From the NCBI GenBank assembly GCA_016844745.1, contig JAERMQ010000013.1:72530-136529 (forward strand): a DNA stretch of 64,000 nucleotides, in the 5' to 3' direction. Positions within the stretch are counted from its first letter, which is position 1. Every line of letters begins with the position of its first letter. This stretch comes from Ignavibacteria bacterium. Its GTDB lineage: Bacteria > Bacteroidota > Ignavibacteria > Kapaibacteriales > UBA2268. The notes under the pieces were generated by a model. That model saw nothing but the letters and a program-made list of their open reading frames with translations. It was not told the DNA's origin and searched no databases. Below are positions 7,815 through 33,425 of this stretch, in pieces. A program made the translations under genes and the position numbers.

Positions 7815-10800
7815 TCATCTTACTACAGCAAATTTCCTGCGTTCATACTCAACTGTGCTGCCGTCTGCTTTGGTTTCGCGAACATAAAATAAATAAATAC
7901 CCGGGTCGATTAGATTGCCGTTTCTATTATGCAAATCCCAATCGACACCGCCATTACCGTCAATCTCTTTCAAGCGAGCAATTAATTCACCCTGAATTGT
8001 AATGACCACAACTTCACATTTTGAGGGTATTTGTGCAAAAGTTAAATGATTTGCATCTCCTAATTTAATAGGATTAGGATAGGCAAATGCATCATCTCCA
8101 TTCGGTGAAGTAAATAAAAAAGATAGAGAATTGCCCGCTCCTGTGGTCATCAGATGTTCCGAATTAGATTTTACATTTTTGACAGTTAAAGTATATGTTT
8201 TACCAAGAGCAGCAATTAACTCACTCGGTTCCAATTCAATTGATACTTGAGCAGGATTGCTTTGCTTTTGATTTACTTTGATGATTTTACCATAAGGCGA
8301 AATCATATAATTACTAATTTGTTCGGCAGTCTGCTGCTCAGTTGGTTCGGAAAATTCGACTAATAATTGAGTTCTGGAAATTACTTCGAGGCTTTTCAGA
8401 TAAAGGAATATTTCTTTTTGTTGTTTACTTAATTCCAGTGGTAAATAGTTTTCTTTTGTAGGCATACGCCACATATCCCTGAACGATTTACATCGAAGGA
8501 TATATTGACCTTCTGTTATAAAATCCGGTAAGGTAACAATTAAACTCGAATCGTTACCAAAGACAACACTTTTAGCTATTGTAAGGAATTCTTTTTTTAC
8601 ATCCAATAATTCAAATAAAGCAGGCTCGAGAGTTTTATTACCGAGCTTACCTGTGTATTTGACCAACAGACGATTACCATTTTGAAATTCTGCCGATTGT
8701 GCAAATAACGGATTATGTGTATAAATTTTAACAATATTTGTATCCAATAATGAAAATTGACTGTAGAAGTCAGTCATGTTACTATTATATGAACGTATTA
8801 CAAAAGAATAGAATTTATTTTTTCCTAAATTTTCAATGTTGATTGTATTGGAGGTAGTCTGCCCAACCGGGTCTGCAAATACGGATTTACCTTCGAACCG
8901 CAGCGAATCAATTTCGTATCCTTCTGCATCAGGTGAAGGATACCATTGAAAGAAAGCAGTCGAATCGCTCGTTGCCCAGCCATCGAATGATGTAGGTGCC
9001 GATGGTCCCTGGAATTGTGCATTAAATTCATAGAACACTGTCTCATTGCCGGTATTGAAGCCTATTTCATTCACTCCGTTGTTATTGAAATCATAAATTA
9101 CCGCGCTATTCGAAAATGCATTATTATTCCAGTAAAGTGGTTTCATATTCTGGTTTTTTTTATCCCATTTCAAAATATACAAATTCGGAAAAGGCATAAG
9201 CACTATCTCATCACCCGGTTCTTTATCCAAATTCCCTGCAGACACACCATTTCGGTAATCAATACCGCTCCGAACTCCGTAAACATAATCTGTCCAAATT
9301 GATTTATATGAATTTGTTCCAATCTTCTGAAAAATTCTATATTTCCATATAATTACTCCGTTATCATTTTCATTTGGAAGAAGACTACTATCAATGGAGC
9401 CAATAAGTATTTCAGGAATACCGTTACCATCAATATCAACGGTAGAAATATAAAAATTCTCATCAGAGTTGCCGCTTGAATCAATAAATTCAAGATTCAA
9501 AGCGCCCTTCGAAAATTCATAAAACATAATATCTCCACTCCGGTTTCCAAAACACAATTCAATATTTCCATCACCGTCGAAATCACCAATAGCAAGTCCC
9601 GGTAGTGTGCCGATATGCTTCCTTTCTCTGTTTGAATCTAATGCCATTGTCATTAGTTCATAACGATTGTTCATAAAAGTATAAATCAAATATGATGTGT
9701 CGCTGGATGCAATCAGTTCTGGATTACCGTTTCGGTCGAAGTCATACATTCCGGCAGCCCAGAAATTATGATATACTGTATCGGAAAAAATTTTGTTAGA
9801 AAAAGGATTTCCCGATTGGATTGATGCCTGAAAAAGTACTGATTTGCCTGAAGATTTTGCAAATACTTCCATAATTCCGTCACCGTTGGAATCGCCCATG
9901 CCAACCGGTATCCAAAGATTTGGAGTAGAATCCCTTTGAATGAATTTATTATCCTTGAATTGATATATTTTTGTGGGTCCCCAAAGTGCTGAAGCCATCT
10001 CATTAACAGCAATGCAAGGATAGCCGTCGTGATAAAAATCCGATACTTTATTTAGAAGATTCTCAGGTGGCAGGGAATAACCCTGCTGTATGAATTTATC
10101 CGAGGGCATTCCTTCCTGTGGAAGAGTGAAATTGAATTTGTTAATTACGGAATCACAACCTGTGCGAACAGCTACAGCCTCGGCTTCGTAAACGATTCCG
10201 GGCTGAAGGTCGTATGCTGTAATGGAATGAAACCTGCCGCTGGTTTCATATTCGCTTATTTCTTTAAATTCGGAATTGGAATTTAAAGGACGGAATCTTA
10301 CCGAAAATAGGCATTGACTCGAGGTTTGCGCCGCTGCCAGCAGAATTCTTTTACCGTTAAATATTGGATAAAGAATAATCAGTGAATCTATTTTTATTCT
10401 CGTCTTTTCAGAAGCAATCTCAATATATTTGCGAAATTCGATTGTATGAAAATTCTTCAAATTGACGATTACTCTTATAGTATAAACGCTGTCGGAATAG
10501 TTATCAACAGGGATTTCCGCTAATTTACCATCTATGATTTGCGAGTTTGTTTTAATATTCAATGTATCCCAGGGTTTAAGATTAAAGTATTGTTTAATTG
10601 TATCGGGTAAATCCCTTTTCGGGACATATACCGGGTCGATTCCTTTGCCGATAAGAACAAGATAATTATTGAATAAAGGAGTTGCTATCGAGCCGGTTAC
10701 AGGAATGGTTGTTTGATTTTTCCTGTTGAAAACCTGATTATTTTTTGGCGTTGAAATGTATAGGTGAGTTCCTCCAATAATATTTAAGGCTGCTTCGGCA

Positions 10801-12413
10801 TTGAGGATACCGGCTCCGGCTTCAATATTCCAGCCTCCATCACCGAAACCGGTTGCGCTTGCTTCCAGTATCCCTTTTATGTCCTCAGGAGAAGCTAATG
10901 GATTAAGCTGACGTATCATTGCTGAAACTGCAGAAATATGTGGAGCAGCTAATGAAGTGCCTGCCGTTTCTTTGTATGCTCCTCCCATAGCGGTTGTTTT
11001 GATTTCTGAACCGGGAGCAAGTAATGCAAGCCGTGAATTGAAATTGCTGAATGATGCACGTTGATTTTTAATCGTTGAAGCGCCAACTCCAATAACTTCA
11101 TCATAATCGGATGGATAATGCGGTTTGCTTGCGCCGTCGTTGCCGGAAGAACCAATAATTACGCAACCGGATGCATAAGCAAATTTAACTGCTTCATGCA
11201 AAATCGGGGAATCCGAATATTCACCAAAACTACAGTTCAATATTTTAATTCCGTTTAATGCAGCATAAATTATTGCCGATGCTATATCACTCGACTGTCC
11301 GCCGCCAACTGCATCGAGGGCACGAAGTGTGACTATCTTAGCATCGAAAGCTATACCCGTTATTCCAATACCATTATTATTTTGGGCTGCAATAACTCCC
11401 GAAACAATAGTTCCGTGTCCATGATTATCAGTTGGAACAGCATCCCTCTGCCTGTCATCACCAACATTTGCAATCGACTCATCGACGAAATCATAACCAA
11501 TAACATCGTCAGAATATCCATTTCCGTCATCATCTTTTCCGTTGAGGTCGCCGGTTATCCCTTTCAATGTATCAGTAGATGTCCAAGGTTCGAATGTACC
11601 GTTTTGATTCAAATCTTCTTTAGGATTAATCCATAGGCTTTTTTTCAAATCGGGATGGTCGTATTCTATACCCGTATCTATTACTCCAACTAAAACATCT
11701 TTACCGGTGGAAAGTAGCCAGGCTTTATCTGCACCTATGGCTTTGATAGCCCATTGGTCTTTGTAATAAGTGTCATTGGGAGTTACTGATGTAGTATCAA
11801 TATGATAAATTACATTCTTATCAATTCGAATAATATCAGGATTGCTTCTCAATTTTTCCCATGCAGCAGGTATGGAAGCCTCATCGGTGAAATTCAAAAC
11901 AAAATACTTTCTTAATTCATTATAATCTTTGTTTTGTTCACTGGATAGTAGGGAATTACCGTTTTTGTCAGAATTAATCTTGGGAAAAATTTGCTTAAAC
12001 TTTGAATTTTTTAATCCAAGATGAATGAGAACATTGCCGATACTCGATGCTGAACGTAATTTTATAATAATAGAATTATTTCCGCTTTTACAGAATAGGT
12101 TATTTGATGAAAATAAAATTACAATTGATGAAAATAAAACTATAAATAACAGAATAGATGTCCTACATCTGCCAGATGTAGGACATCTTCGTTCCTTCAA
12201 TTGATAGATGTCATTAACAGCAATACGAAGTATTGTATAGAATCTATACAACGCATGAATACTGGATTCTTCACTTCGTTCAGAATGACAATCCTGTAAA
12301 TTTGAAAAATTTCCATGTGTATTTATACAAATTGGAAAGTGGATGGAACGGACATTTTTCATGGATATGCTTACAAACTTTCTACATAATTCAAATATAT
12401 AAAAAGCAATCAA
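7815..12413 (-). CDS. Very large secreted subtilisin-like (S8) serine peptidase with FG-GAP/VCBS-type repeats and a C-terminal T9SS/FlgD-Ig-like sorting domain. The 5' end is uncertain.
   Basis: S8 catalytic triad blocks: VIDTGIEYDHPDL (Asp), HGHGTIVSGVIAA (His), GTSLAAPHISAVSAMI (Ser). Multiple DxDGDG repeat motifs (GDFDGDGNIE, DIDGNGIPE). The C-terminal LTFAQIP...IQGELI...IYLFYV segment resembles a T9SS CTD. The listed N-terminus translates through two REP-like palindromes (12157-12187, 12265-12293) before the hydrophobic signal-like segment (ILLFIVLFSSIVILF). No in-frame ATG lies near that segment, so the true start may be a non-ATG codon around 12170 or the long leader may be real. Confidence 0.75.
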   Translation of the reverse strand: MIAFYIFELCRKFVSISMKNVRSIHFPICINTHGNFSNLQDCHSERSEESSIHALYRFYTILRIAVNDIYQLKERRCPTSGRCRTSILLFIVLFSSIVILFSSNNLFCKSGNNSIIIKLRSASSIGNVLIHLGLKNSKFKQIFPKINSDKNGNSLLSSEQNKDYNELRKYFVLNFTDEASIPAAWEKLRSNPDIIRIDKNVIYHIDTTSVTPNDTYYKDQWAIKAIGADKAWLLSTGKDVLVGVIDTGIEYDHPDLKKSLWINPKEDLNQNGTFEPWTSTDTLKGITGDLNGKDDDGNGYSDDVIGYDFVDESIANVGDDRQRDAVPTDNHGHGTIVSGVIAAQNNNGIGITGIAFDAKIVTLRALDAVGGGQSSDIASAIIYAALNGIKILNCSFGEYSDSPILHEAVKFAYASGCVIIGSSGNDGASKPHYPSDYDEVIGVGASTIKNQRASFSNFNSRLALLAPGSEIKTTAMGGAYKETAGTSLAAPHISAVSAMIRQLNPLASPEDIKGILEASATGFGDGGWNIEAGAGILNAEAALNIIGGTHLYISTPKNNQVFNRKNQTTIPVTGSIATPLFNNYLVLIGKGIDPVYVPKRDLPDTIKQYFNLKPWDTLNIKTNSQIIDGKLAEIPVDNYSDSVYTIRVIVNLKNFHTIEFRKYIEIASEKTRIKIDSLIILYPIFNGKRILLAAAQTSSQCLFSVRFRPLNSNSEFKEISEYETSGRFHSITAYDLQPGIVYEAEAVAVRTGCDSVINKFNFTLPQEGMPSDKFIQQGYSLPPENLLNKVSDFYHDGYPCIAVNEMASALWGPTKIYQFKDNKFIQRDSTPNLWIPVGMGDSNGDGIMEVFAKSSGKSVLFQASIQSGNPFSNKIFSDTVYHNFWAAGMYDFDRNGNPELIASSDTSYLIYTFMNNRYELMTMALDSNRERKHIGTLPGLAIGDFDGDGNIELCFGNRSGDIMFYEFSKGALNLEFIDSSGNSDENFYISTVDIDGNGIPEILIGSIDSSLLPNENDNGVIIWKYRIFQKIGTNSYKSIWTDYVYGVRSGIDYRNGVSAGNLDKEPGDEIVLMPFPNLYILKWDKKNQNMKPLYWNNNAFSNSAVIYDFNNNGVNEIGFNTGNETVFYEFNAQFQGPSAPTSFDGWATSDSTAFFQWYPSPDAEGYEIDSLRFEGKSVFADPVGQTTSNTINIENLGKNKFYSFVIRSYNSNMTDFYSQFSLLDTNIVKIYTHNPLFAQSAEFQNGNRLLVKYTGKLGNKTLEPALFELLDVKKEFLTIAKSVVFGNDSSLIVTLPDFITEGQYILRCKSFRDMWRMPTKENYLPLELSKQQKEIFLYLKSLEVISRTQLLVEFSEPTEQQTAEQISNYMISPYGKIIKVNQKQSNPAQVSIELEPSELIAALGKTYTLTVKNVKSNSEHLMTTGAGNSLSFLFTSPNGDDAFAYPNPIKLGDANHLTFAQIPSKCEVVVITIQGELIARLKEIDGNGGVDWDLHNRNGNLIDPGIYLFYVRETKADGSTVEYERRKFAVVR

Positions 12414-14836: not shown

Positions 14837-15652
14837 TCAGGAAATTCCAGCACTCCCAGGAATGAAATTTTTTTGATTAATAGAATTACTCTTAAGCAAT
14901 TTAATGATTTTCTCAGGGAAATTGGTTACAAGCGCTTTAATATTGTATCTCAAAAATTTCTTCAAATGCTCCTCCGTATCTATACTATAGACGCCTATGT
15001 AAAGACCGGATTTTTCGGCATCATCCGATATCGTTTGATTTATTTCATTAAGTGAGCAAACAAAAGCTTCACAGCCGATTTCGGAGGCAATTTCCGATGA
15101 CAATCGTTTATCGGCAGGTAATTTTATTGCTGCGGTATGAATATTATTATTACTTATTTTGATTTTTTTAAGTATATCGTAATTAAACGATGCTAAAAGT
15201 GTGTAATCCTCAAGTTCTGCATCCATGATTTTGCCTAATAAATATTCTGCTTCTTCCAAAGTATTGAATTTTCCGGAACTTTTTATTTCTATATTGAGAT
15301 AAACTTTTCCGGCTACTAATTTCAAAACATCATCCATCAATGGAATTTTAGTTCCTGAAAATTCGGATGAAAACCAAGAGCCTGCATCATAAGATTGTAG
15401 TTGTTTATAATCGAAATCTTTCACTTTTCCTTTACCATTTGTGGTGCGCTCCAAAGTCGGGTCATGGAAAGTAATAATCCTGTTATCGGCTGTGGTTTGA
15501 ATATCTATTTCGAGCATCTCGCAGCCGCTTTCAATGGCTTTGATGTACGATGGTAAAGTATTTTCCGGTGCAGTTCCGGAAGAACCTCTGTGACCTACTA
15601 CAAAAAATTTTTCCTCGAGAGCAAACTCCCTCAACGGTTTTAGTTTCTTCAT
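14837..15652 (-). CDS. Glycerophosphodiester phosphodiesterase
   Basis: VVGHRGSSGTAPENTLPSY ... EIDIQTTADNRIITFHDPTLERTT are GDPD catalytic motifs (HR...E.D...HD). Confidence 0.8.
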   Translation of the reverse strand: MKKLKPLREFALEEKFFVVGHRGSSGTAPENTLPSYIKAIESGCEMLEIDIQTTADNRIITFHDPTLERTTNGKGKVKDFDYKQLQSYDAGSWFSSEFSGTKIPLMDDVLKLVAGKVYLNIEIKSSGKFNTLEEAEYLLGKIMDAELEDYTLLASFNYDILKKIKISNNNIHTAAIKLPADKRLSSEIASEIGCEAFVCSLNEINQTISDDAEKSGLYIGVYSIDTEEHLKKFLRYNIKALVTNFPEKIIKLLKSNSINQKNFIPGSAGIS

Positions 15653-15827
15653 ATTCTCCGTATCATATCAAAAAATTTCAAAAATAATCAAAACTTCTCT
15701 TATTAAATAATTTGGATTTCAAATTATCAATAGAAAGATAAAACGATATTCTTTAAAAAGTATTTGGAATTATAAAAAAATTATACGAAATTAACAGAAA
15801 ATTTTTTACAATTGAAAGGGAAGGAAC

Positions 15828-16268
15828 ATGCCGCAAACAGTAACTGTCCAGAAAATAATGACAAAGGATGTCTTTACAATTGGTTTGGAAGACACCGTTC
15901 ATAGAGCAGATGAAATTATGAAAGAAGAAAATGTACGCCATGTTCCGGTCGTCGACGGTGGTAAATTAGTAGGGCTTATTACCGAACGCAGCCTTAGGGA
16001 ATACACACTCAGGAATCTTTATGAATTCGATGAATCAAATGAAACGGAAGGTCGGAATAAAATTTCTGATTTTCATGATATCATGACCGAAGTTCTGCAT
16101 ATTGTTTATCCTGATGATAGCGTTGAAAAGGCTGTTAAGCTTATGACGAAGTATAAAGTCGAATGTTTACCGGTAGTGGATTGGAATAATAACCTGGTTG
16201 GCATATTGACAACTTATGATGCCTTGTTGTTTCTACATAATAAACTCGCTGAAGGTAAGGTCTTATAA
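15828..16268 (+). CDS. CBS-domain pair protein
   Basis: Two CBS repeats (IMTKDVFTI...HVPVVDGGKLVGLITERSL and IMTEVLHIV...LPVVD.NNNLVGILTTYD). Confidence 0.75.
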   Translation: MPQTVTVQKIMTKDVFTIGLEDTVHRADEIMKEENVRHVPVVDGGKLVGLITERSLREYTLRNLYEFDESNETEGRNKISDFHDIMTEVLHIVYPDDSVEKAVKLMTKYKVECLPVVDWNNNLVGILTTYDALLFLHNKLAEGKVL

Positions 16269-16321
16269 CAAGACTTCGGATTGATAATTTTGTTTAGGTG
16301 GGTTCTAAAAATTCAATTTAG

Positions 16322-16402
16322 ACTGTCATTCTGAGCGAAGCGAAGAATCTATCTTGTTGATTTTAAAGAAGACTGGATTCTTCGCTTCGCTTCAGAATGA
16401 CA
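16322..16402. repeat. Hairpin element, family A (arms tgtcattctgagcgaagcgaagaatc / gattcttcgcttcgcttcagaatgaca)
   Basis: ~26-bp inverted arms separated by ~24 bp. Related copies at 39299-39372 and 42442-42521; half-copies at 12265-12293 and ~46447-46466. Confidence 0.8.
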
Positions 16403-16953
16403 ATTTTTAGAAGCCCCCTTTATTCAATTCAACCTATTTTGTTATTTGGTAATAATTTAAAAGATTGATTATAATATTAAAATAAATATACTTTTACATT
16501 CTCTTTATTCGAATAGAATTTAGAGTAACGTATCTTTAAAATTAGTATTTCTTACCTTAATTAGTGATACTAATTAATTTATTATTTCTAAAATATTATA
16601 TTAAATTTAAATTGTTTTGAGGAAATATTGGCTAAATATTAATATAAACATTTAATTACATTATAATAATAATAAAATACTACAAATAATATCATTAATT
16701 TATTGATAATTATATATATTGAAAAAAAAAATTCCATTATAACATATCCCGGAAGAAATAATTGAAAATCAAATAAGTAAAATTTCTTTGAAAAGAACAT
16801 CCTACTTAATTTTTAGGCAGGATGTTCTTTTTTGTAACATTTACGATATAAAAAAATAAATTTCTTTGTTAGAGGTCTGAACTATAAATAAATTTGCTTA
16901 TTAGTAATATTATAAAAATTTGTTTATTATTTGATAACATAAAGGTAGTATTT

Positions 16954-20619: not shown

Positions 20620-20890
20620 TAGGTATCAATACTCAAAATTAAAAACTGGTACCCGCAAGATAGCAGTTAAAGGATTTAAAAATTATATTGAAAAGTGTAT
20701 TCGATAAATAACAATAATCCCATCGGGATGAAATATTTATAGAAAAATACATGACAAAATAACCAAAACCCCATAGGGGTGAAATCACGACTTTATGCCG
20801 AATTCATTTACAAAAATCTATCTTCACGTTATTTTTTCCGTTCAACGTCGCAAAAATCTTATCGGCAATAATTGGAAGGTCGAATAAAAA

Positions 20891-21763
20891 ATGACCGGAA
20901 AAGTAGCAATGACACTTCAGCTTAATCAAGAAAAGGTAGCACAGACGCCCCCGTCTGTGCATAAACCAATTAAAGAAGAGGTATCACAAGTACCTCCGTC
21001 AGTGGATAATCTCATCCAAGAAAAGGTAGCACAGACGCCCCCGACTGTACATAATCCGATTAAAGAAGAGGTATCACAAGTACCTCCGTCAGTGGATAAT
21101 CTCATGCAAGAAAAAGTAGCACAGACGCCCCCGTCTGTACAGCATGAAAATGAACCAAAAAACTCAATGTCTTTAAATAATCTAATTCAAAACAAAGAGG
21201 CACAGACGGGGGCGTCTGTGCTACCAAGTGCAGATAATACTTCATCATTTCAACCAATAATAGATTTTACTTTTCATCAAAGAAACCTCCCACACTGGCA
21301 AAATCCAGGAAGTATATATTTTATTACATTTAGAACCTATAAAAATTTAATTCTTGATGATATTTCAAAACAAATAATTTATGAAAATATCATTTATTAT
21401 GGTAAACTTTTTTATAAGTTATTGTCATTTGTAATAATGCCGGACCATATTCATATTATTCTTCAACCCAATGAAATAGAAAAAAATATTTACGTAAACC
21501 TTTCCAAAATTATGCAAGCGATTAAAGGATATGCAGCCAAACAAATAATTAAGCATCTATCTCAACAGACAGAACAGACCTCACAAATTCAAGAGATTGC
21601 ACAGACGGGGGCGTCTGTGCTACTAAATTCCAATTTTCAAATAAAGAATGAGAATACATCGCAGAAAATTGCTTTCTTATTTTATCCATTTTCATATCTT
21701 TTTAAAATCGTTTTAATACTGTTCCTTTTGCGCATATTATATTTGCAAAGCTGTGTTCTTTGA
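20891..21763 (+). CDS. REP-associated tyrosine transposase (RAYT / IS200-like Y1 HuH transposase). The N-terminal ~90 aa as listed are translated from a REP tandem array and may not all be coding.
   Basis: Core FHQRNLPHW...IYFITFRT...MPDHIHIIL (HuH) ...KGYAAKQI (catalytic Tyr helix) matches the Y1_Tnp/RAYT family. The first clear in-frame Met before the core is MSLNNL (~21163). A 91-bp unit is repeated 3x in 20915-21150. Confidence 0.8.
   Translation: MTGKVAMTLQLNQEKVAQTPPSVHKPIKEEVSQVPPSVDNLIQEKVAQTPPTVHNPIKEEVSQVPPSVDNLMQEKVAQTPPSVQHENEPKNSMSLNNLIQNKEAQTGASVLPSADNTSSFQPIIDFTFHQRNLPHWQNPGSIYFITFRTYKNLILDDISKQIIYENIIYYGKLFYKLLSFVIMPDHIHIILQPNEIEKNIYVNLSKIMQAIKGYAAKQIIKHLSQQTEQTSQIQEIAQTGASVLLNSNFQIKNENTSQKIAFLFYPFSYLFKIVLILFLLRILYLQSCVL
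20939..21140. repeat. Array of three 22-bp palindromic REP copies (gcacagacgcccccgtctgtgc, 'CCCCC' orientation) embedded in ~91-bp tandem repeat units
   Basis: Copies at 20939-20960, 21029-21050 and 21119-21140, each within a repeated QEKVAQTPPSV...IKEEVSQVPPSVDNL unit. Confidence 0.85.
21200..21221. repeat. REP copy in inverted orientation (gcacagacgggggcgtctgtgc)
   Basis: Same palindrome with the central GGGGG instead of CCCCC. Lies just upstream of the RAYT catalytic core. Confidence 0.85.
21599..21620. repeat. REP copy (GGGGG orientation) within the 3' end of the RAYT ORF
   Basis: Exact 22-bp match to the copy at 21200. Confidence 0.85.
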
Positions 21764-21867
21764 AAAAGCCGGGATGAAATCCTTCGTGTCCATTGAGAGT
21801 GCCTTTGCGCCCTTTGTGTTAAAATCAGTTCATAAAGTTGAAAGTGAAGGGCGAACTGATAAACACT

Positions 21868-21990
21868 TTCAGAAAGTTTCCCTACTTTCGGAAAGTTGAA
21901 CAAAAAAAATGCAATAAATCCTATTCAATAGTATTCATTCGTACCTTATGAAAAAAACTTTCTGAAAGTAGGGAAACTTTCCGAAAGTAA
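21868..21990. repeat. 33-bp inverted repeat pair (ctttcagaaagtttccctactttcggaaagtt / aactttctgaaagtagggaaactttccgaaagt) separated by ~55 bp
   Basis: Near-perfect reverse-complementary arms between the RAYT gene and the 3' end of the convergent activase gene. Probably a large hairpin element or bidirectional terminator. Confidence 0.6.
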
Positions 21991-22129
21991 AAAATCGAAA
22001 ATACGTAGTAAAAAGTAGTAAAAAGCAGTAATTTGAAAATGTATCAATTTGAAAATGAATTGAAGAAAAGATGTCCAACATCTTCCAGATGTTGGACATC
22101 TAAAATCTTTGGAAAATTTAGAGTTAATT

Positions 22130-25100
22130 CTATTCCTTCTGCACTTTTTCGCTTTTAAAGAAATTGAATTTCTTATCGTCATGCTTGGCTTTGCCGTTTT
22201 TCTGTTTGGCTAATTTCATAAGGCGTGCAGCGCGTTCTGCCTGCAAAGTGAATGTCTCTAACCTTGCCTCGATAATCTGGGGATAAACATTTCCATCCGA
22301 TTCGATTGTTAAGAACGGAATGCTCAGGTTGCCGTTGAAGACTTCTGAAATTTCATAATCAGGGTCGTTTAATCTTTTTGCAAGAATCTTATGCTCTACC
22401 TTCATTTCCGGGATTGCAACTGCCTCTGTGAAACGGGTTGGCATACATCCGAAAGGTCCAAGATTAATTATACCGCAATATTCCTCGAATCCTTCATGAA
22501 GTGCAGTACCGAGAGTTAAACCGGGTTCGCCCTTGATTTCGAGAGGTATAATATGCTTGGAATGGCTGAGCAGCGCCTCGATATTAATTTTAGTAAAATA
22601 ACCTGATTTAGCTAACGCCTTCTTGATTTTCTTTTCGGCATTGTGCATATACATGCTTCGGATATAGCGCTCGGAGCGGTTTTTGATGGAATTGTCAGCT
22701 TCGATTAATCCAATGCTGATTAGATAATCAATATAATATATCCATTCGGTGATATGAGCGATTTTCAGGACAAATCCCTTTTTAGCAAAGACACGATTCA
22801 AATACTTATGTGCAAAATTATCACGGCGGACGAATATTTCACCGGTAAGGGCAACATACTTAGCTTCTTCAATCGGCACTCTGACAGGGACTTCTGCTCG
22901 AATTACTTCAGAGAAATCCTCCAGATAATCGTAAATTTTTTCTGGTTTCAAAGTGTATAATGCTACAACCTTTTTGAATTCCCTGTCAAATACTTCCTCT
23001 CCTTTGATAGGGTCAAGGGAATAAGCTAAAATTGCAGAACGTATATCATCCAAAACATCTGCTGCCATCAAAGCAAGAATGCCGTATTTCGAGAAATTAT
23101 CTCCGATTCCGGCATAACCGTTATCCGTAGAAAGGAAGAACTGGGCGACATTATCTAATCTTTTACGCTTGATAATATCATTCAATAAAACCGGATATTG
23201 ACCAATCCTGCAGCTACCGGAACTTGATATATTGAAGAATGCTATATAATCTTTGCCATTCCATTTGTTTTCAATATAATTCACTAATCCTCCGGCAAGC
23301 AGAATAAGCGGCAGGCATTCTTTTCCGGTAAGATAGGCTCTGCCGTAATGCAGAATTTCCGAATCGCTGTCGGGAAGTTTCTCGGCATTATATCCGATAG
23401 CCCGGAATGCAGCGGCGAAGAACTCGGAAGTTAAATCACCCATAGGAGGAATCAGGATTTTGACTCGTGGGTCTTTCAAGGGAAGTATTTCACCATTCGA
23501 TGTATGGAAGTAACCGCTAACATCATCGAAAGTCACCTGCGACATAACATAACCAGTATAATCAGGGTCATGGATGTTTTCGCTGACCTTGCGATAATTT
23601 TTAATAATATCCAATGCTGCATCTATACGGGTATTTATACCTGCATCGGCAGTATGTCCGTCTAATTCGAGTGTAAGTGAAGGCTTGGTTCCCATGATAT
23701 TCCTGAATGTAGTGATAATCATGGAATCCGGTCCGCATGAGAAATTCGATATATATGTTGCGAATAACTGAGGATGGCGCTTAATTATCTTAGCGATTTT
23801 AAGAATCTTCTTACCTCCCTCCCAAAACATATCTACATCAACTATTTCTTTGCGGTAATCGAACATGTCATAGGGGAGAACATAAATACCACGCGAAGCA
23901 AACTTGCGGGGAATTCCTTTGTTTGCATGTTCGGTAAATGAGTTGTAAGGACGACCGACAATCACCATAGCATAGTCTTCTGGATGTTCTTCCAGATATT
24001 TAAGGAATTCAGCTCCGGTATCGAACATTTCCGTTTCATAAGCGCTCTGCATATCGACGGCAAACCGGTAAGCTTCGCGAGCCTTGTTAACGTCTTCGAT
24101 TCCGAGCTTTTGTGCAATTTCAATAAATTTATCTTCTTCGGCATCGAACCCTGACGCAAAATTGAGTGGTGGTGCGAACAACCGGTCGGCGATTTTGTAT
24201 TCTTTATATGCCTGCTGCAGGAAGAAGGGTTCAGTGATTACGAATACACAAGTAGCATTGTAATCTATATGATAATGTTCTTCATCTTCGACATACATTT
24301 CCAATAAGTTTGGTACGAAAAGATAATCCGGATTCTTGTTTAGTAGGTTCTGGAATAATCCGAGGGATAACTGCCCAGGGAAACAGAAGGATGTCATTTC
24401 ACGTTCCAATCCTTCATCCTCGACGGCATCCGGCATAACGATATTGAATCCAAGCCTGGTAAAGAAGTTATGATAAAGTGGATAGACTGTATGAGTATGG
24501 AAAGAAGCATTGATACCGATTGATTTGGCATCTTCGGGTAATTCAACCATGGGCGCATATTTCTCGAAGCAAAGCCGGCGCCTTAGCTCGACGAAATCGA
24601 AGTGAACAGGGTCAATTTTACTTCTGCTTCGCAGGTTATAATATTTATTACAGGCTCCACCGAAAGTGTAATTTTTACCTTGAACTTCGATTAGGTTTAT
24701 TGAACAGGAACGGTCGCATTTTTCTTTGCCGCCAACGCAGATGAAAGGTTTCTTGTATCTTACGTCGCGTCCTGCAAGTTCAGCCAAGTCATATAGCTGT
24801 TCTTCCATGAACCCAAGTTTGATTTTCTCTTTAACTTCCAATGCTACACCGAAGGCTCCCATTAATCCGGGTTCGGGTGGAACGATAATTTCCTTACCTG
24901 TGAGGGCTGCCATTGCAATCGGAATTGCCTTATTATAACATACTCCGCCTTGCATGAATATTTTCTTGCCAACTGGGCGGTTGCCTTTTACGCGGTTAAC
25001 ATAGTTAAGACAGATAGAATAAACCAGACCGGCAATGATATCTTCTTTAGAAAGATTTTCCTGAAGCGCTGTTTTAATATCAGAACTGATAAATGCGGCA

Positions 25101-32520: not shown

Positions 32521-32549
32521 GATTGGATTTGTTTACATTTTTAAATATA

Positions 32550-32580
32550 GATGTCCTACATCTGCCAGATTTAGGACATC
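32550..32580. repeat. REP-like palindrome, family B (gatgtcctacatctgccagatttaggacatc)
   Basis: 31-bp near-perfect palindrome. Copies at 12157-12187 (perfect) and 22070-22100 (variant gatgtccaacatcttccagatgttggacatc). Confidence 0.8.
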
Positions 32581-32589
32581 TCCAGTCAA

Positions 32590-33360: not shown

Positions 33361-33425
33361 AGGACAGACAGGGATGTCTGTCCTACCATATTAAAAAAAG
33401 TAGAATAGACATCCTTGTCTGTTCA
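33361..33425. repeat. Two CAGAC-core palindromes (aggacagacagggatgtctgtcct; gaatagacatccttgtctgttc), probable terminator hairpins
   Basis: Located at the 3' end of the DUF4337 gene and followed by A/T-rich sequence. The core resembles the RAYT-associated REP (acagacg...cgtctgt). Confidence 0.55.

Follow-up and report, generated by a model that had tools for sequence, protein, structure and literature searches.

Genes for TnpA_REP enzymes (REP-associated tyrosine transposases, RAYTs) that carry their own REPs in frame have been known since 2018, when Quentin, Siguier, Chandler and Fichant described them in subclasses 2.4, 2.7 and 2.8 (PMC6006769). Subclass 2.7 has the signature [ND]HVH / WQ / YI[LR][NQ]NP and includes AEB09570.1 of Desulfobacca acetoxidans, whose REP is GTAG-GCACAGACC-TCCA-GGTCTGTGC (PMC6006769). 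Subclass 2.4, the Group 4 of Bertels, occurs in Cyanobacteria, Bacteroidetes, Chlorobia and others, carries the Y motif YIxNNP and has a low REP copy number, the flanking 16-mers occurring about 14 times per replicon (PMC6006769). The sample of Quentin et al., as far as its supplementary listings go, contains no Ignavibacteria (PMC6006769). Group 4 RAYTs are common in Chlorobia (Bertels et al. 2017, PMC5581495), and this, together with the survey of Quentin et al., counts against the view taken in a preliminary description of the present locus that such a combination is not expected in Bacteroidota/Ignavibacteria-type genomes. In-frame palindromes are also tolerated in coding loops and linkers of other genes, the RPEs of Rickettsia and intragenic REPs being examples (Di Nocera et al. 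2013, PMC3733652).

The locus described here lies in a 64-kb window (the whole stretch of DNA that was analysed) from an Ignavibacteria bacterium. It is very probably a decaying REPtron, that is, a single-copy, domesticated class 2 RAYT/TnpA_REP gene, now truncated, with its cognate REP hairpins. This conclusion follows from the in-frame hairpins of its orthologues, the flanking REPs, the compensatory changes in the stems, and 51 contigs on which the hairpin occurs without a RAYT.

The truncated RAYT gene is a 290-amino acid ORF at 20891-21763 on the + strand, as given by the ORF list, Pfam and NCBIfam. Its product is 100% identical to NCBI entry HW421_1217 (P0001), from an Ignavibacteria bacterium metagenome-assembled genome (MAG). 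Pfam Y1_Tnp matches with an E value of 3.4e-6 over profile positions 37-90 of 121. The best family model is NF047646 (REP-associated tyrosine transposase, NCBIfam), which gives 47.7 bits over positions 3-100 of 146; this falls below the curated cut-off of 80 bits, which the orthologues P0002 (82.1 bits) and P0009 (88.0 bits) pass. The IS200 model NF033573 (cut-off 55 bits) scores 23.9 bits for the window protein and 19.7-19.8 bits for the orthologues, and all of them fail it. The conserved N-terminal half of the Y1/HUH core occupies 21281-21586 (+) and comprises RNLPHW, the beta1 strand IYFITFRT, DHIH and the helix IMQAIKGYAAKQI. The HUH motif proper is the DHIH at 21443-21454, and D185, H186 and H188 are invariant in the alignment of the window ORF with its relatives (A1). 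Across the window gene and its orthologues this motif reads DH[VIA]H, and DHxH is the form in 151 of 159 family members for which both motifs could be located. The orthologues carry DH[VI]H, [FW]Q and YILNNP, their tyrosine motif being Y-x3-NP (class 2).

Fold comparison was made for the orthologue P0002. Its AlphaFold model (pLDDT 80.4) has as top structure match 4er8_A, the E. coli RAYT with REP (E 5.3e-8, TM 0.69, rmsd 2.9 Å), followed by the TnpA structures of IS200, IS608 and ISDra2 (rmsd 7-16 Å). 4ER8 is also the best solved-structure match by sequence, and phmmer aligns the orthologue HUH motif and NYILNN segment to it, the latter to Y115. The RAYT-type Y1 core recognized in the preliminary description is thus borne out by the Pfam, NCBIfam and P0002 matches; the palindrome is not unique to the locus and the profiles do match, and the basic RAYT/REP reading stands.

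A single RAYT copy is present in the window, among neighbours of housekeeping type: a chemoreceptor, a 238-amino acid ORF of unknown function and a CoA-enzyme activase, with no tnpB nearby. Blastn of the flanks (20620-20930 and 21625-22135) against the fetched orthologue and metagenome loci revealed no similarity. The mini-ORF at 20795-20887 (MPNSFTKIYLHVIFSVQRRKNLIGNNWKVE) was considered as the start of a second Y1 gene and rejected, since Pfam, NCBIfam, PDB, a search of 5.8 billion proteins and tblastn against all loci returned nothing.

Homology to the full-length orthologues ends near 21640, the tblastn alignments ending at 21622 and the last alignable codons lying at 21624-21641 (+; LNSNFQ versus PIKHIFQ). 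By alignment, tblastn and HMM the ORF tail at 21642-21763 (+) is unrelated to the orthologues and stands in place of their ESFDRIIRN...NYILNNPVKKGL segment with the catalytic Tyr; the window ORF has neither the WQ/ESFDR motif nor the catalytic Y-x3-NP motif. In 24 full-length relatives 18 alignment columns are invariant, among them the catalytic Tyr (Y180 in P0002), and the C-terminal ones, Tyr included, are missing from the window ORF. A search for the missing C-terminus, with full-length and C-terminal orthologue fragments in tblastn and a C-terminal HMM against the six frames, found nothing significant; the top HMM match (E about 1, non-significant) lies at 21900-21959 and has a stop codon at the position of the Tyr. 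Because the catalytic tyrosine segment is absent the window copy is, judged on sequence, a 3'-truncated relic whose tyrosine half is gone, and the gene is best read as a pseudogene. The preliminary description, in which the truncation does not appear, had inverted REPs bracketing the catalytic core. The G-loop copies at 21200 and 21599 do form such a bracket, but it encloses the HUH half only (Pfam positions 37-90 of 121, NCBIfam positions 3-100 of 146).

Two other explanations of the truncation were weighed. The sequence comes from a metagenome-assembled genome and the homology breaks some 20 nt past a perfect repeat that is present five times within 700 nt, so that the real genome might have an intact RAYT and the contig might be mis-joined near the 21599 hairpin. 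We regard such an assembly artefact as improbable. Homology persists for about 20 nt beyond the hairpin (LNSNFQ versus PIKHIFQ), which puts the break past the repeat, and the next 490 nt run straight to a convergent BadF/BcrA-type gene with no other anomaly. Moreover, the best C-terminal match, a non-significant one, is found 260 nt downstream; it is in a different frame and has a stop codon where the Tyr should be, which suggests real decay. That the ORF is instead an intact functional derivative, in which HUH/REP binding is retained beside a novel C-terminus and which might serve, for instance, as a REP-binding regulator, is very improbable. Its frame does remain open for 41 codons beyond the homology break and its HUH half is well conserved (50-60% identity to the orthologues), but none of the 27 relatives retrieved in searches with the ORF has a counterpart of the tail, the C-terminal columns invariant in the 24 full-length relatives are missing, catalytic Tyr included, and the ORF fails the curated NF047646 cut-off.

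Five GTAG-headed hairpins, each with a 9-bp stem and a 4-nt loop, lie inside the ORF at 20891-21763 in one common reading frame, in agreement with the earlier proposal that the REPs are translated in frame. The pattern GCACAGACGCCCCCGTCTGTGC occurs at 20939, 21029 and 21119 on the + strand and in opposite polarity, with a G-rich centre as previously reported, at 21200 and 21599; the 64 kb hold no other match at up to three mismatches (0.00 expected by chance). The repeat unit extends beyond 22 nt and is not symmetric, with GTA before the C-loop copies and TAC after the G-loop copies. Including GTA/TAC, the inverted identity is perfect over 26-27 nt, and the unit has a GTAG head; three heads are on the + strand and two on the - strand.

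A GTAGCA REP head that has lost its palindrome body lies 12 nt on from the start codon (20891-20908, +), an ATG-N9-GTAG arrangement shared with the orthologues, and 20899-20913 is 87% identical to 21112-21126. A repeat search identified a tandem array at 20926-21141 (+) of 2.4 x 90 nt (4.7 x 45 nt) with 94% identity. In each 90-nt unit, which encodes (Q/K)E(K/E)VAQTPPSV... / VSQVPPSV..., a REP is accompanied by a decayed REP-like unit, and all of these have the same orientation. REP1 (20936-20960, +) is a perfect hairpin, GTA + GCACAGACG.CCCC.CGTCTGTGC, headed (GTAG) on the coding strand and with a predicted single-stranded DNA folding energy, the measure of stability used throughout, of -11 kcal/mol (z -8.3). 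REP2 (21026-21050, +; -3.7 kcal/mol) has two stem mismatches and REP3 (21116-21140, +; -7 kcal/mol) has one, so that of three palindromes previously called perfect only the first is so, although their positions are correct. The period given as 91 bp is in fact 90 nt, with the 45-nt sub-period and 2.4 copies noted above. Folding is lost in the decayed unit GTATCACAAGTACCTCCGTCAGTGG at 20981-21005 (+; -2.2 kcal/mol, z -0.6), a second copy of which lies at 21071-21095.

REP4 (21200-21224, -) is a perfect hairpin that encodes AQTGASVL; its GTAG head belongs to the non-coding strand, the coding strand showing a G-rich loop and CTAC. Together with REP3, REP4 is predicted to be capable of forming a REPIN-like long hairpin with a 23-bp stem (-31 kcal/mol, z -8.9). 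REP5 (21599-21623, -), also perfect and also headed on the non-coding strand, falls, in frame, within the loop that joins helix alphaC to strand beta4. A search of Rfam matched only sub-threshold miRNA-precursor models, on account of the long hairpins. In BIMEs the orientation of the REPs alternates; here the three 5' copies are co-oriented in a recent 90-nt tandem duplication with a decayed REP-like half in each unit, and a BIME-like array, as once suggested, is therefore unsupported. The 5' array probably originated by tandem duplication of the 90-nt unit. Upstream, the small GGG/CCC hairpins already pointed out are real, at 20717-20734 and 20768-20785.

The window contains a second REP locus, an intergenic inverted pair of variant REPs at 33362-33424 that adjoins the stop codon of a DUF4337 gene, found in Python with the pattern CAGACGNNNNNCGTCTG. 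The first copy (33362-33383) reads GGACAGACA.GGGA.TGTCTGTCC followed by TACC, and the second (33403-33424) GTA + GAATAGACA.TCCT.TGTCTGTTC; they correspond to the second palindrome class previously placed at 33361-33425. This brings the REP copies in the 64 kb to seven at two loci. A scan of genome contigs with the loose pattern GNACAGACRNNNNNYGTCTGTNC gave at least 120 hairpins, mostly unrelated and terminator-like, and none of the matches listed is near a RAYT.

Nine further contigs of Ignavibacteria/Kapabacteria-like type bear orthologues, and these have the same hairpins at the N-terminus, again in frame. Eight of the nine also have a REP or REP remnant between the HUH and Tyr motifs, at the REP5 site, the exception being L177; internal REPs there, all in frame 0, were found in L121, L124 (five copies), L125, L180, L181, L182 and L183. 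The internal array varies from 1 to 5 copies among orthologues, and most of the nine loci have REPs outside the ORF as well, upstream and/or downstream. In total 56 GT[AG]G-headed hairpins lie in or beside the ten RAYT loci (the nine and that of the window): 32 inside genes, all in frame 0, and 24 outside, either up- or downstream. When oriented by the head nearly all of the loops are pyrimidine-rich; one double-foot copy was seen, in L139. ATG/GTG-N9-GTAG[AC]ACAGACG is found in L121, L125, L180, L181 and L183, so that the ATG-N9-GTAG spacing is common to five of nine orthologue loci and the window, placing a stable hairpin at +15 of the mRNA. The exact 22-mer is also present, with GT[AG]G heads, on 51 metagenome contigs without a RAYT, and in low-GC metagenome contigs it is mostly outside ORFs. 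With such heads, with copies that flank and invade the gene, and with recurrence at the second window locus and on the 51 RAYT-free contigs, the palindromes are, as first proposed, the REPs of this enzyme.

Of nine stem pairs, six have undergone double (compensatory) changes, and the covariation score of 0.358 compares with 0.143 in shuffles, 0 of 500 of which reach the observed value. The proportion of paired stem cells (95.4%) is partly circular, since the hairpins had been selected for near-perfect pairing. Where the stems differ (GAACGGGCG in L177, GGACAGGCG in L179) so do the peptides (VERAPSPV and VGQAPSPV, respectively), which indicates that the DNA structure is conserved and not the peptide. 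VAQTPPSV and QTGASVLP do recur across the orthologues, and T-rich runs come after several of the copies on the minus strand (8 terminator-like sites versus 1.1 expected), as might be anticipated if the palindromes were the by-product of a selected proline-rich peptide repeat, or terminators or operators, instead of mobile REPs. We find this hardly credible, as the same hairpins are found beside the orthologues outside ORFs, as well as between genes; substitutions in the stems come in compensatory pairs, with the peptides changing accordingly; and the P0002 model predicts disorder or loop for the segments that the REPs encode. The constancy of frame may be due to shared descent from a small number of ancient insertions and not to selection. 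L177 and L179 share synteny (tRNA_SAD, ABC-F, RAYT), an indication of vertical descent.

An insertion sequence of IS200/IS605 type, with the palindromes as left-end and right-end subterminal hairpins, would account for the Pfam Y1_Tnp match and for hairpins either side of the HUH region, but is almost certainly wrong given an IS200 model score of 23.9 bits against a cut-off of 55, an orthologue Tyr motif of Y-x3-NP (class 2) and not Y-x3-Q, no nearby tnpB, one copy in the window, vertical descent in L177/L179 and hairpins widespread without the gene. We have rejected it, together with the selected peptide repeat and the BIME-like alternating 5' array.

By analogy with the E. coli RAYT, intact members of such a REPtron would use the HUH metal site and the tyrosine in the Y-x3-NP helix to bind single-stranded REP hairpins, and would cut and rejoin DNA beside the GT[AG]G head, a reaction by which REPs, singly and in pairs, are presumed to be dispersed over the chromosome. 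For a full-length orthologue such as P0002 the putative substrate is single-stranded GTAGCACAGACGCCCCCGTCTGTGC. The REPs of this clade both flank the gene and occur within it, there always in the same frame, in two groups, one just after the start codon and the other in the surface loop alphaC-beta4, between the HuH and Tyr motifs; they would be translated as xQTPPSV / xQTGASVLP linkers, disordered according to the model. The window copy has lost all sequence 3' of the internal REP, and with it the GTAG-recognition and catalytic-tyrosine segment, such that catalysis would no longer be possible.

It is doubtful that the intragenic REPs are more than tolerated passengers, namely maintained cis-acting control sites. 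The fixed ATG-N9-GTAG spacing, and the perfect hairpins with compensatory substitutions that persist at one alphaC-beta4 loop site, would speak for such a role. Were it correct, the enzyme or the hairpin RNA/ssDNA could throttle RAYT expression or target its own gene, and REP-proximal breakage, as in the window, might be the usual death of such genes.

The gene in the window is a clean but ordinary example of a known arrangement, since REPs in frame were described for this enzyme family in 2018, and the locus leaves current understanding of REP/RAYT systems unchanged. It adds an Ignavibacteria/Kapabacteria clade to the RAYT subclasses that carry their own REPs in frame, provides a clear case in which the DNA hairpin and not the encoded peptide is conserved, the stems co-varying and the peptides following, and illustrates the decay of a RAYT beside an internal REP. 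For annotation purposes, stop-free REP arrays inflate or fuse the ORFs of this family, the "proline-rich N-terminal domains" of these proteins are translated REPs, and the window gene should be flagged as a pseudogene.

Likeness to subclasses 2.7 and 2.4 was judged from the motifs and the REP sequences of Table S1. The orthologues carry the motif signature of subclass 2.7 (DH[VI]H / [FW]Q / YILNNP), and the REPs are likewise short, with a GT[AG]G head, a nearly identical stem of ca. 9 bp and a pyrimidine-rich loop of 3-4 nt; the window copy differs in having the first motif only, and no Y motif. The subclass 2.4 REP GTAG-GGACAGAC-TTTAT-GTCTGTCC has the same stem as the window copy at 33362, and the YIxNNP motif and low REP copy number of that subclass are further points of likeness. 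However, the HuH motif of that subclass is NH[IFV]H as against DHIH in the window, its REPs are long or "double foot" whereas those of the clade are short, and its modelled insertion is in the beta3-alphaC loop while that of the clade is predicted in the alphaC-beta4 loop. The E. coli RAYT (YafM/TnpA_REP, 4ER8) has the same fold as the P0002 model, the HUH and Y-x3-NP helix being common to it and the orthologues, and its REPtron likewise has GTAG-headed REPs, inverted around the gene, with several REP subtypes per locus. The E. coli REPs differ in being longer and bulged and in lying outside genes, while those of the window and clade are inside the ORF; and there are hundreds of copies per E. 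coli genome as opposed to an apparently low density in the 64 kb seen here. The TnpA proteins of IS200, IS608 and ISDra2 belong to the same HUH/Y1 superfamily and recognize single-stranded hairpins, but have Y-x3-Q, are multi-copy, often accompany tnpB and match the structure less well (rmsd 7-16 Å). Lastly, the RPEs and intragenic REPs of Di Nocera et al. reside in genes unrelated to the mobilising enzyme, whereas here the host gene is that of the REP's presumed transposase.

The ORF at 20891-21763 (+) is present on direct reading; it specifies 290 amino acids and is identical to NCBI 'hypothetical protein HW421_1217 [Ignavibacteria bacterium]', from a 157,619-bp MAG contig. As the preliminary description of this locus anticipated, it matches Pfam Y1_Tnp, and its best model is NCBIfam NF047646, 'REP-associated tyrosine transposase' (RAYT); but its 47.7 bits fall below the NF047646 cut-off of 80 bits, and the matches cover only positions 3-100 of 146 (NF047646) and 37-90 of 121 (Y1_Tnp). 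The full-length orthologues P0002 (82.1 bits) and P0009 (88.0 bits) match positions 3-145 of NF047646, both above the cut-off. The IS200 model gave about 20-24 bits, under its cut-off of 55 bits. The 26 relatives recovered show 25-61% identity in the aligned set, and beyond the internal hairpin their alignments read (P)IKHIFQxESFDRIIRNxxELxEKMNYILNNPVKKGL, a C-terminal segment which phmmer aligns to IWQPRFWEHAIRN...DY115IYINPVKHG of E. coli TnpA_REP (PDB 4ER8). Past the hairpin the window ORF has '...VLLNSNFQ' alone in common with them, followed by complete divergence. Because DNA-level homology to the relatives stops at ~21640, tblastn alignments end at 21622, and none of the six frames yields a significant match to a C-terminal segment profile, the gene has lost the half responsible for GTAG recognition and carrying the catalytic Tyr. 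No second RAYT fragment was found by tblastn in the 64 kb. Unless the contig is mis-assembled the gene is a relic, truncated and catalytically dead, a point overlooked in the preliminary description.

The best, non-significant C-terminal profile match in the six frames of the window (E about 1) lies at 21900-21959 (+), in a frame other than that of the ORF. Here TKKMQ*ILFNSIHSYLMKKT (TKKMQ*ILFNSI) is aligned with yEKMNYILNNPVKKGLVENG (EKMNYILNNPV), a stop codon occupying the position of the catalytic Tyr; this may be a decayed Tyr-motif remnant that has moved away from its expected position by about 210 nt. The match falls exactly between the arms of a 33-nt inverted repeat in 21865-21988 (94% complementary, 58-nt spacer), made up of four copies of the 13-bp palindrome ACTTTCnGAAAGT at 21865, 21884, 21957 and 21976, which is absent elsewhere in the window (0.24 expected). 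These sit between convergent genes, in the intergenic stretch downstream of the RAYT relic, and resemble paired operator sites or else some small structured element.

For P0002, an intact orthologue, AlphaFold gives a model with a pLDDT of 80.4. In its N-terminal REP-encoded stretch the confidence is very low, residues 12-32 falling under pLDDT 50, and the internal stretch (residues 144-158) is modelled as coil that joins helix 117-143 to strand 159-168. The closest solved structure to the model is 4ER8 (E 5.3e-8, TM 0.69, rmsd 2.9 A), with the IS200/IS608/ISDra2 transposases ranking behind.

A pattern search of the window for the 22-nt palindrome GCACAGACG-CCCC-CGTCTGTGC, with up to 3 mismatches allowed, gave five matches against a chance expectation of 0.00. 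Three are on the plus strand at 20939, 21029 and 21119 (0, 2 and 1 mismatches, respectively), and two, with the loop inverted, are at 21200 and 21599 (0 mismatches each). The latter were described as bracketing the catalytic core; the inverted copies are there, but the catalytic-Tyr half is absent from the ORF. The first three do belong to a tandem array, though its period is 90 nt rather than 91 (2.4 copies, 94% identity, sub-period 45 nt), and only the copy at 20939 is perfect; in the alternate 45-nt half lies GTATCACAAGTACCTCCGTCAGTGG, a REP-like unit which by fold prediction has lost its folding. Canonical REPs are defined by a GT[AG]G 'foot', to which the flanks of the window copies correspond: GTA lies 5' of the C-loop copies and TAC lies 3' of the G-loop copies, the perfect inverted identity extending over 26-27 nt. 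The copies at 21119 and 21200 are predicted to pair as a REPIN-like long hairpin (23-bp stem, -31 kcal/mol, z -8.9). The suggestion of a BIME-like 5' array is not supported, as this is a tandem duplication with all copies in one orientation, unlike the N-terminal array of orthologue locus L125, in which two REP types alternate in orientation and which is truly BIME-like. The further palindrome class reported around 33361-33425 proved to be a second REP locus, an inverted pair of variant copies at 33362-33424 with identical foot and compensated stem changes, which is intergenic and adjoins the stop codon of a DUF4337 gene.

In the window and nine orthologue loci we found 56 GT[AG]G-footed hairpins (9-bp stem, 4-nt loop), 32 within RAYT ORFs and 24 outside, up- or downstream. 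The intragenic copies are all in the same reading frame, encoding V-x-Q-T-P-P-S-V when the head is on the coding strand and x-Q-T-G-A-S-V-L-P when it is on the opposite strand. The core of the original reading, in which the locus is a RAYT whose own REPs are translated in frame, is right. An internal site directly 5' of the FQxES strand is occupied in 8 of the 9 orthologue loci, with one to five copies at some and decayed remnants at others (none in L177). The stems vary between and within loci (GCAC.., GAAC.., GCTC.., GGTC..; GAACGGGCG / GGACAGGCG in L177/L179) yet remain complementary, and the peptides shift along with them (VERAPSPV, VGQAPSPV). Among 54 oriented copies 95.4% of stem cells are paired, a percentage that is partly circular since copies were picked for near-perfect pairing; six of the nine stem pairs contain double substitutions, and the covariation score of 0.358, vs 0.143 in shuffles, was reached by 0 of 500 shuffles.

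Five orthologue loci have ATG/GTG-N9-GTAG in common. The window retains ATG-N9-GTAGCA, the palindrome body being gone, so that by its shared spacing the annotated ATG at 20891 is the positional homologue of the family start codon. Upstream, in the RAYT frame, is a mini-ORF of 30 codons (20795-20887; MPNSFTKIYLHVIFSVQRRKNLIGNNWKVE*), separated from this ATG by one TAA and one codon. It may be similar to the N-terminal beta-strand of IS200-like Y1 proteins; no match came from Pfam, NCBIfam, PDB or a large protein search. The two small hairpins described at 20700-20790 are present upstream of both ORFs, ATCCCATCGGGATGAAAT (20717-20734) and ACCCCATAGGGGTGAAAT (20768-20785), 51 nt apart; they differ by a compensatory T-A to C-G change and have a GAAAT tail in common. 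Counterparts were not found in the nine orthologue loci. A second palindromic family, unrelated to the REPs, is AGATGTCC[AT]ACATCT-NCC-AGATGT[TA]GGACATCT, whose 15-bp stems carry a compensated change at the centre. It occurs at 12156-12188 (within the 1532-aa ORF 7815-12413(-)), 22069-22101 and 32549-32581, with six half-site matches vs 0.22 expected; a similar hairpin, AGACATCCAATGTT..AACATTGGATGTCT, is found four times in L121, a Kapabacteria locus, within 15305-16655.

The loci L177 and L179 (around position 10001) encode the divergent orthologues P0009 and P0013 in common synteny (tRNA_SAD gene, ABC-F ATPase, RAYT) with diverged REP stems (CGGGCG vs CAGGCG), which is consistent with vertical co-evolution of RAYT and REPs. 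Locus L124 (744-1363) carries arrays of a different GTAG-footed type, GAGACGAAA..TTTCGTCTC+TAC alternating with GTA+GAGACGCAT..ATGCGTCTC at 45-nt spacing and overlapping a called 125-aa ORF, ~2.4 kb upstream of a RAYT with CAGACG-type REPs, so that this contig holds two REP families. Directly 5' of the RAYT start, L121 (9960-10001), L180 (236-275) and L183 (5960-6000) share a conserved sequence encoding ..(L)TEEEIKIVEG, a motif also seen at the N-terminus of protein P0014. In L121 it forms the C-terminal end encoded by an MmeI/Eco57I-type restriction-modification gene, the stop codon of that gene overlapping the RAYT ATG, and RhuM and DUF1016 genes lie nearby. This suggests that the clade is recurrently associated with a defence island.

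Among JGI metagenome contigs, exact matches to GMACAGACGCCCYCGTCTGTKC occur on 51 contigs of 31 to 66% GC, all with GT[AG]G-type feet and none with a RAYT; the palindrome is therefore not unique to the RAYT locus. On the low-GC, Ignavibacteria-like contigs 8 of 14 REP copies lie outside any stop-to-stop ORF of at least 100 aa, and these contigs also hold REP pairs and one 'double-foot' copy. Copies of the form G[CG]ACAGACA-loop-TGTCTGT[GC]C with a GTA/TAC foot were seen in Acidobacteriota MAGs (L029, L097 and L115 from one Thermoanaerobaculia MAG; L039, L094 and L099 from Pyrinomonadaceae/Blastocatellia), and acGTAG-GCACAGACG-CCCT-CGTCTGTGC was seen on soil metagenome contigs of high GC (about 60%); the stem type thus spans several phyla.

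The family is large: the cluster representatives recovered by a profile search number 27,581 at E <= 1e-3, and 408 when the threshold is set at E <= 1e-30. From a sample of 174 sequences (the best 150 of this search plus earlier matches), 159 had both motifs, with a median HuH-to-Y distance of 66 residues; in 18 it exceeds 85, and in most of these the space is filled by repeated REP-like peptides. Several very long 'proteins' start with apparently unrelated upstream genes and may be read-through fusions across REP arrays. Many top representatives (e.g. P0033, P0050, P0057, P0069, P0089, P0091, P0092) are 600-1500 aa with a C-terminal or central RAYT domain; by eye, their N-termini look like housekeeping enzymes (tRNA synthetases, purine-synthesis and DNA-repair enzymes), and repeated REP-like peptides occur in some. 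Probably these are fusions made in gene calling, where REP arrays lack stops.

Family membership, fold, the GTAG-footed co-varying hairpins with their in-frame positions, their dispersal to a second window locus and onto metagenome contigs, and the truncation are shown by the present analysis; by analogy with the E. coli RAYT, intact members would bind the single-stranded hairpin and cleave at the foot by HUH/Tyr chemistry. A regulatory role for the start-proximal and internal REPs is speculative. TnpA-Y1 proteins have been classified by Quentin, Siguier, Chandler & Fichant 2018 (PMC6006769), whose Table S1 lists REPs with stems almost identical to ours in subclass 2.7 (Desulfobacca, GTAG-GCACAGACC-TCCA-GGTCTGTGC) and subclass 2.4 (GTAG-GGACAGAC-TTTAT-GTCTGTCC). 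The motifs of the present clade (DH[VI]H, [FW]Q, YILNNP) fit those of subclass 2.7 ([ND]HVH, WQ, YI[LR][NQ]NP) better than subclass 2.4, whose HuH motif is NH[IFV]H, and on this signature we provisionally assign the clade to 2.7. GTAG-tagged REPs, some intragenic, were described by Di Nocera et al. 2013 (PMC3733652), and Bertels et al. 2017 (PMC5581495) found that Group 4 is common among Chlorobia and that its REP copy numbers are low. Neither novelty nor the supposed taxonomic unexpectedness can be maintained, and the window locus is a decayed example of an already known type of RAYT.
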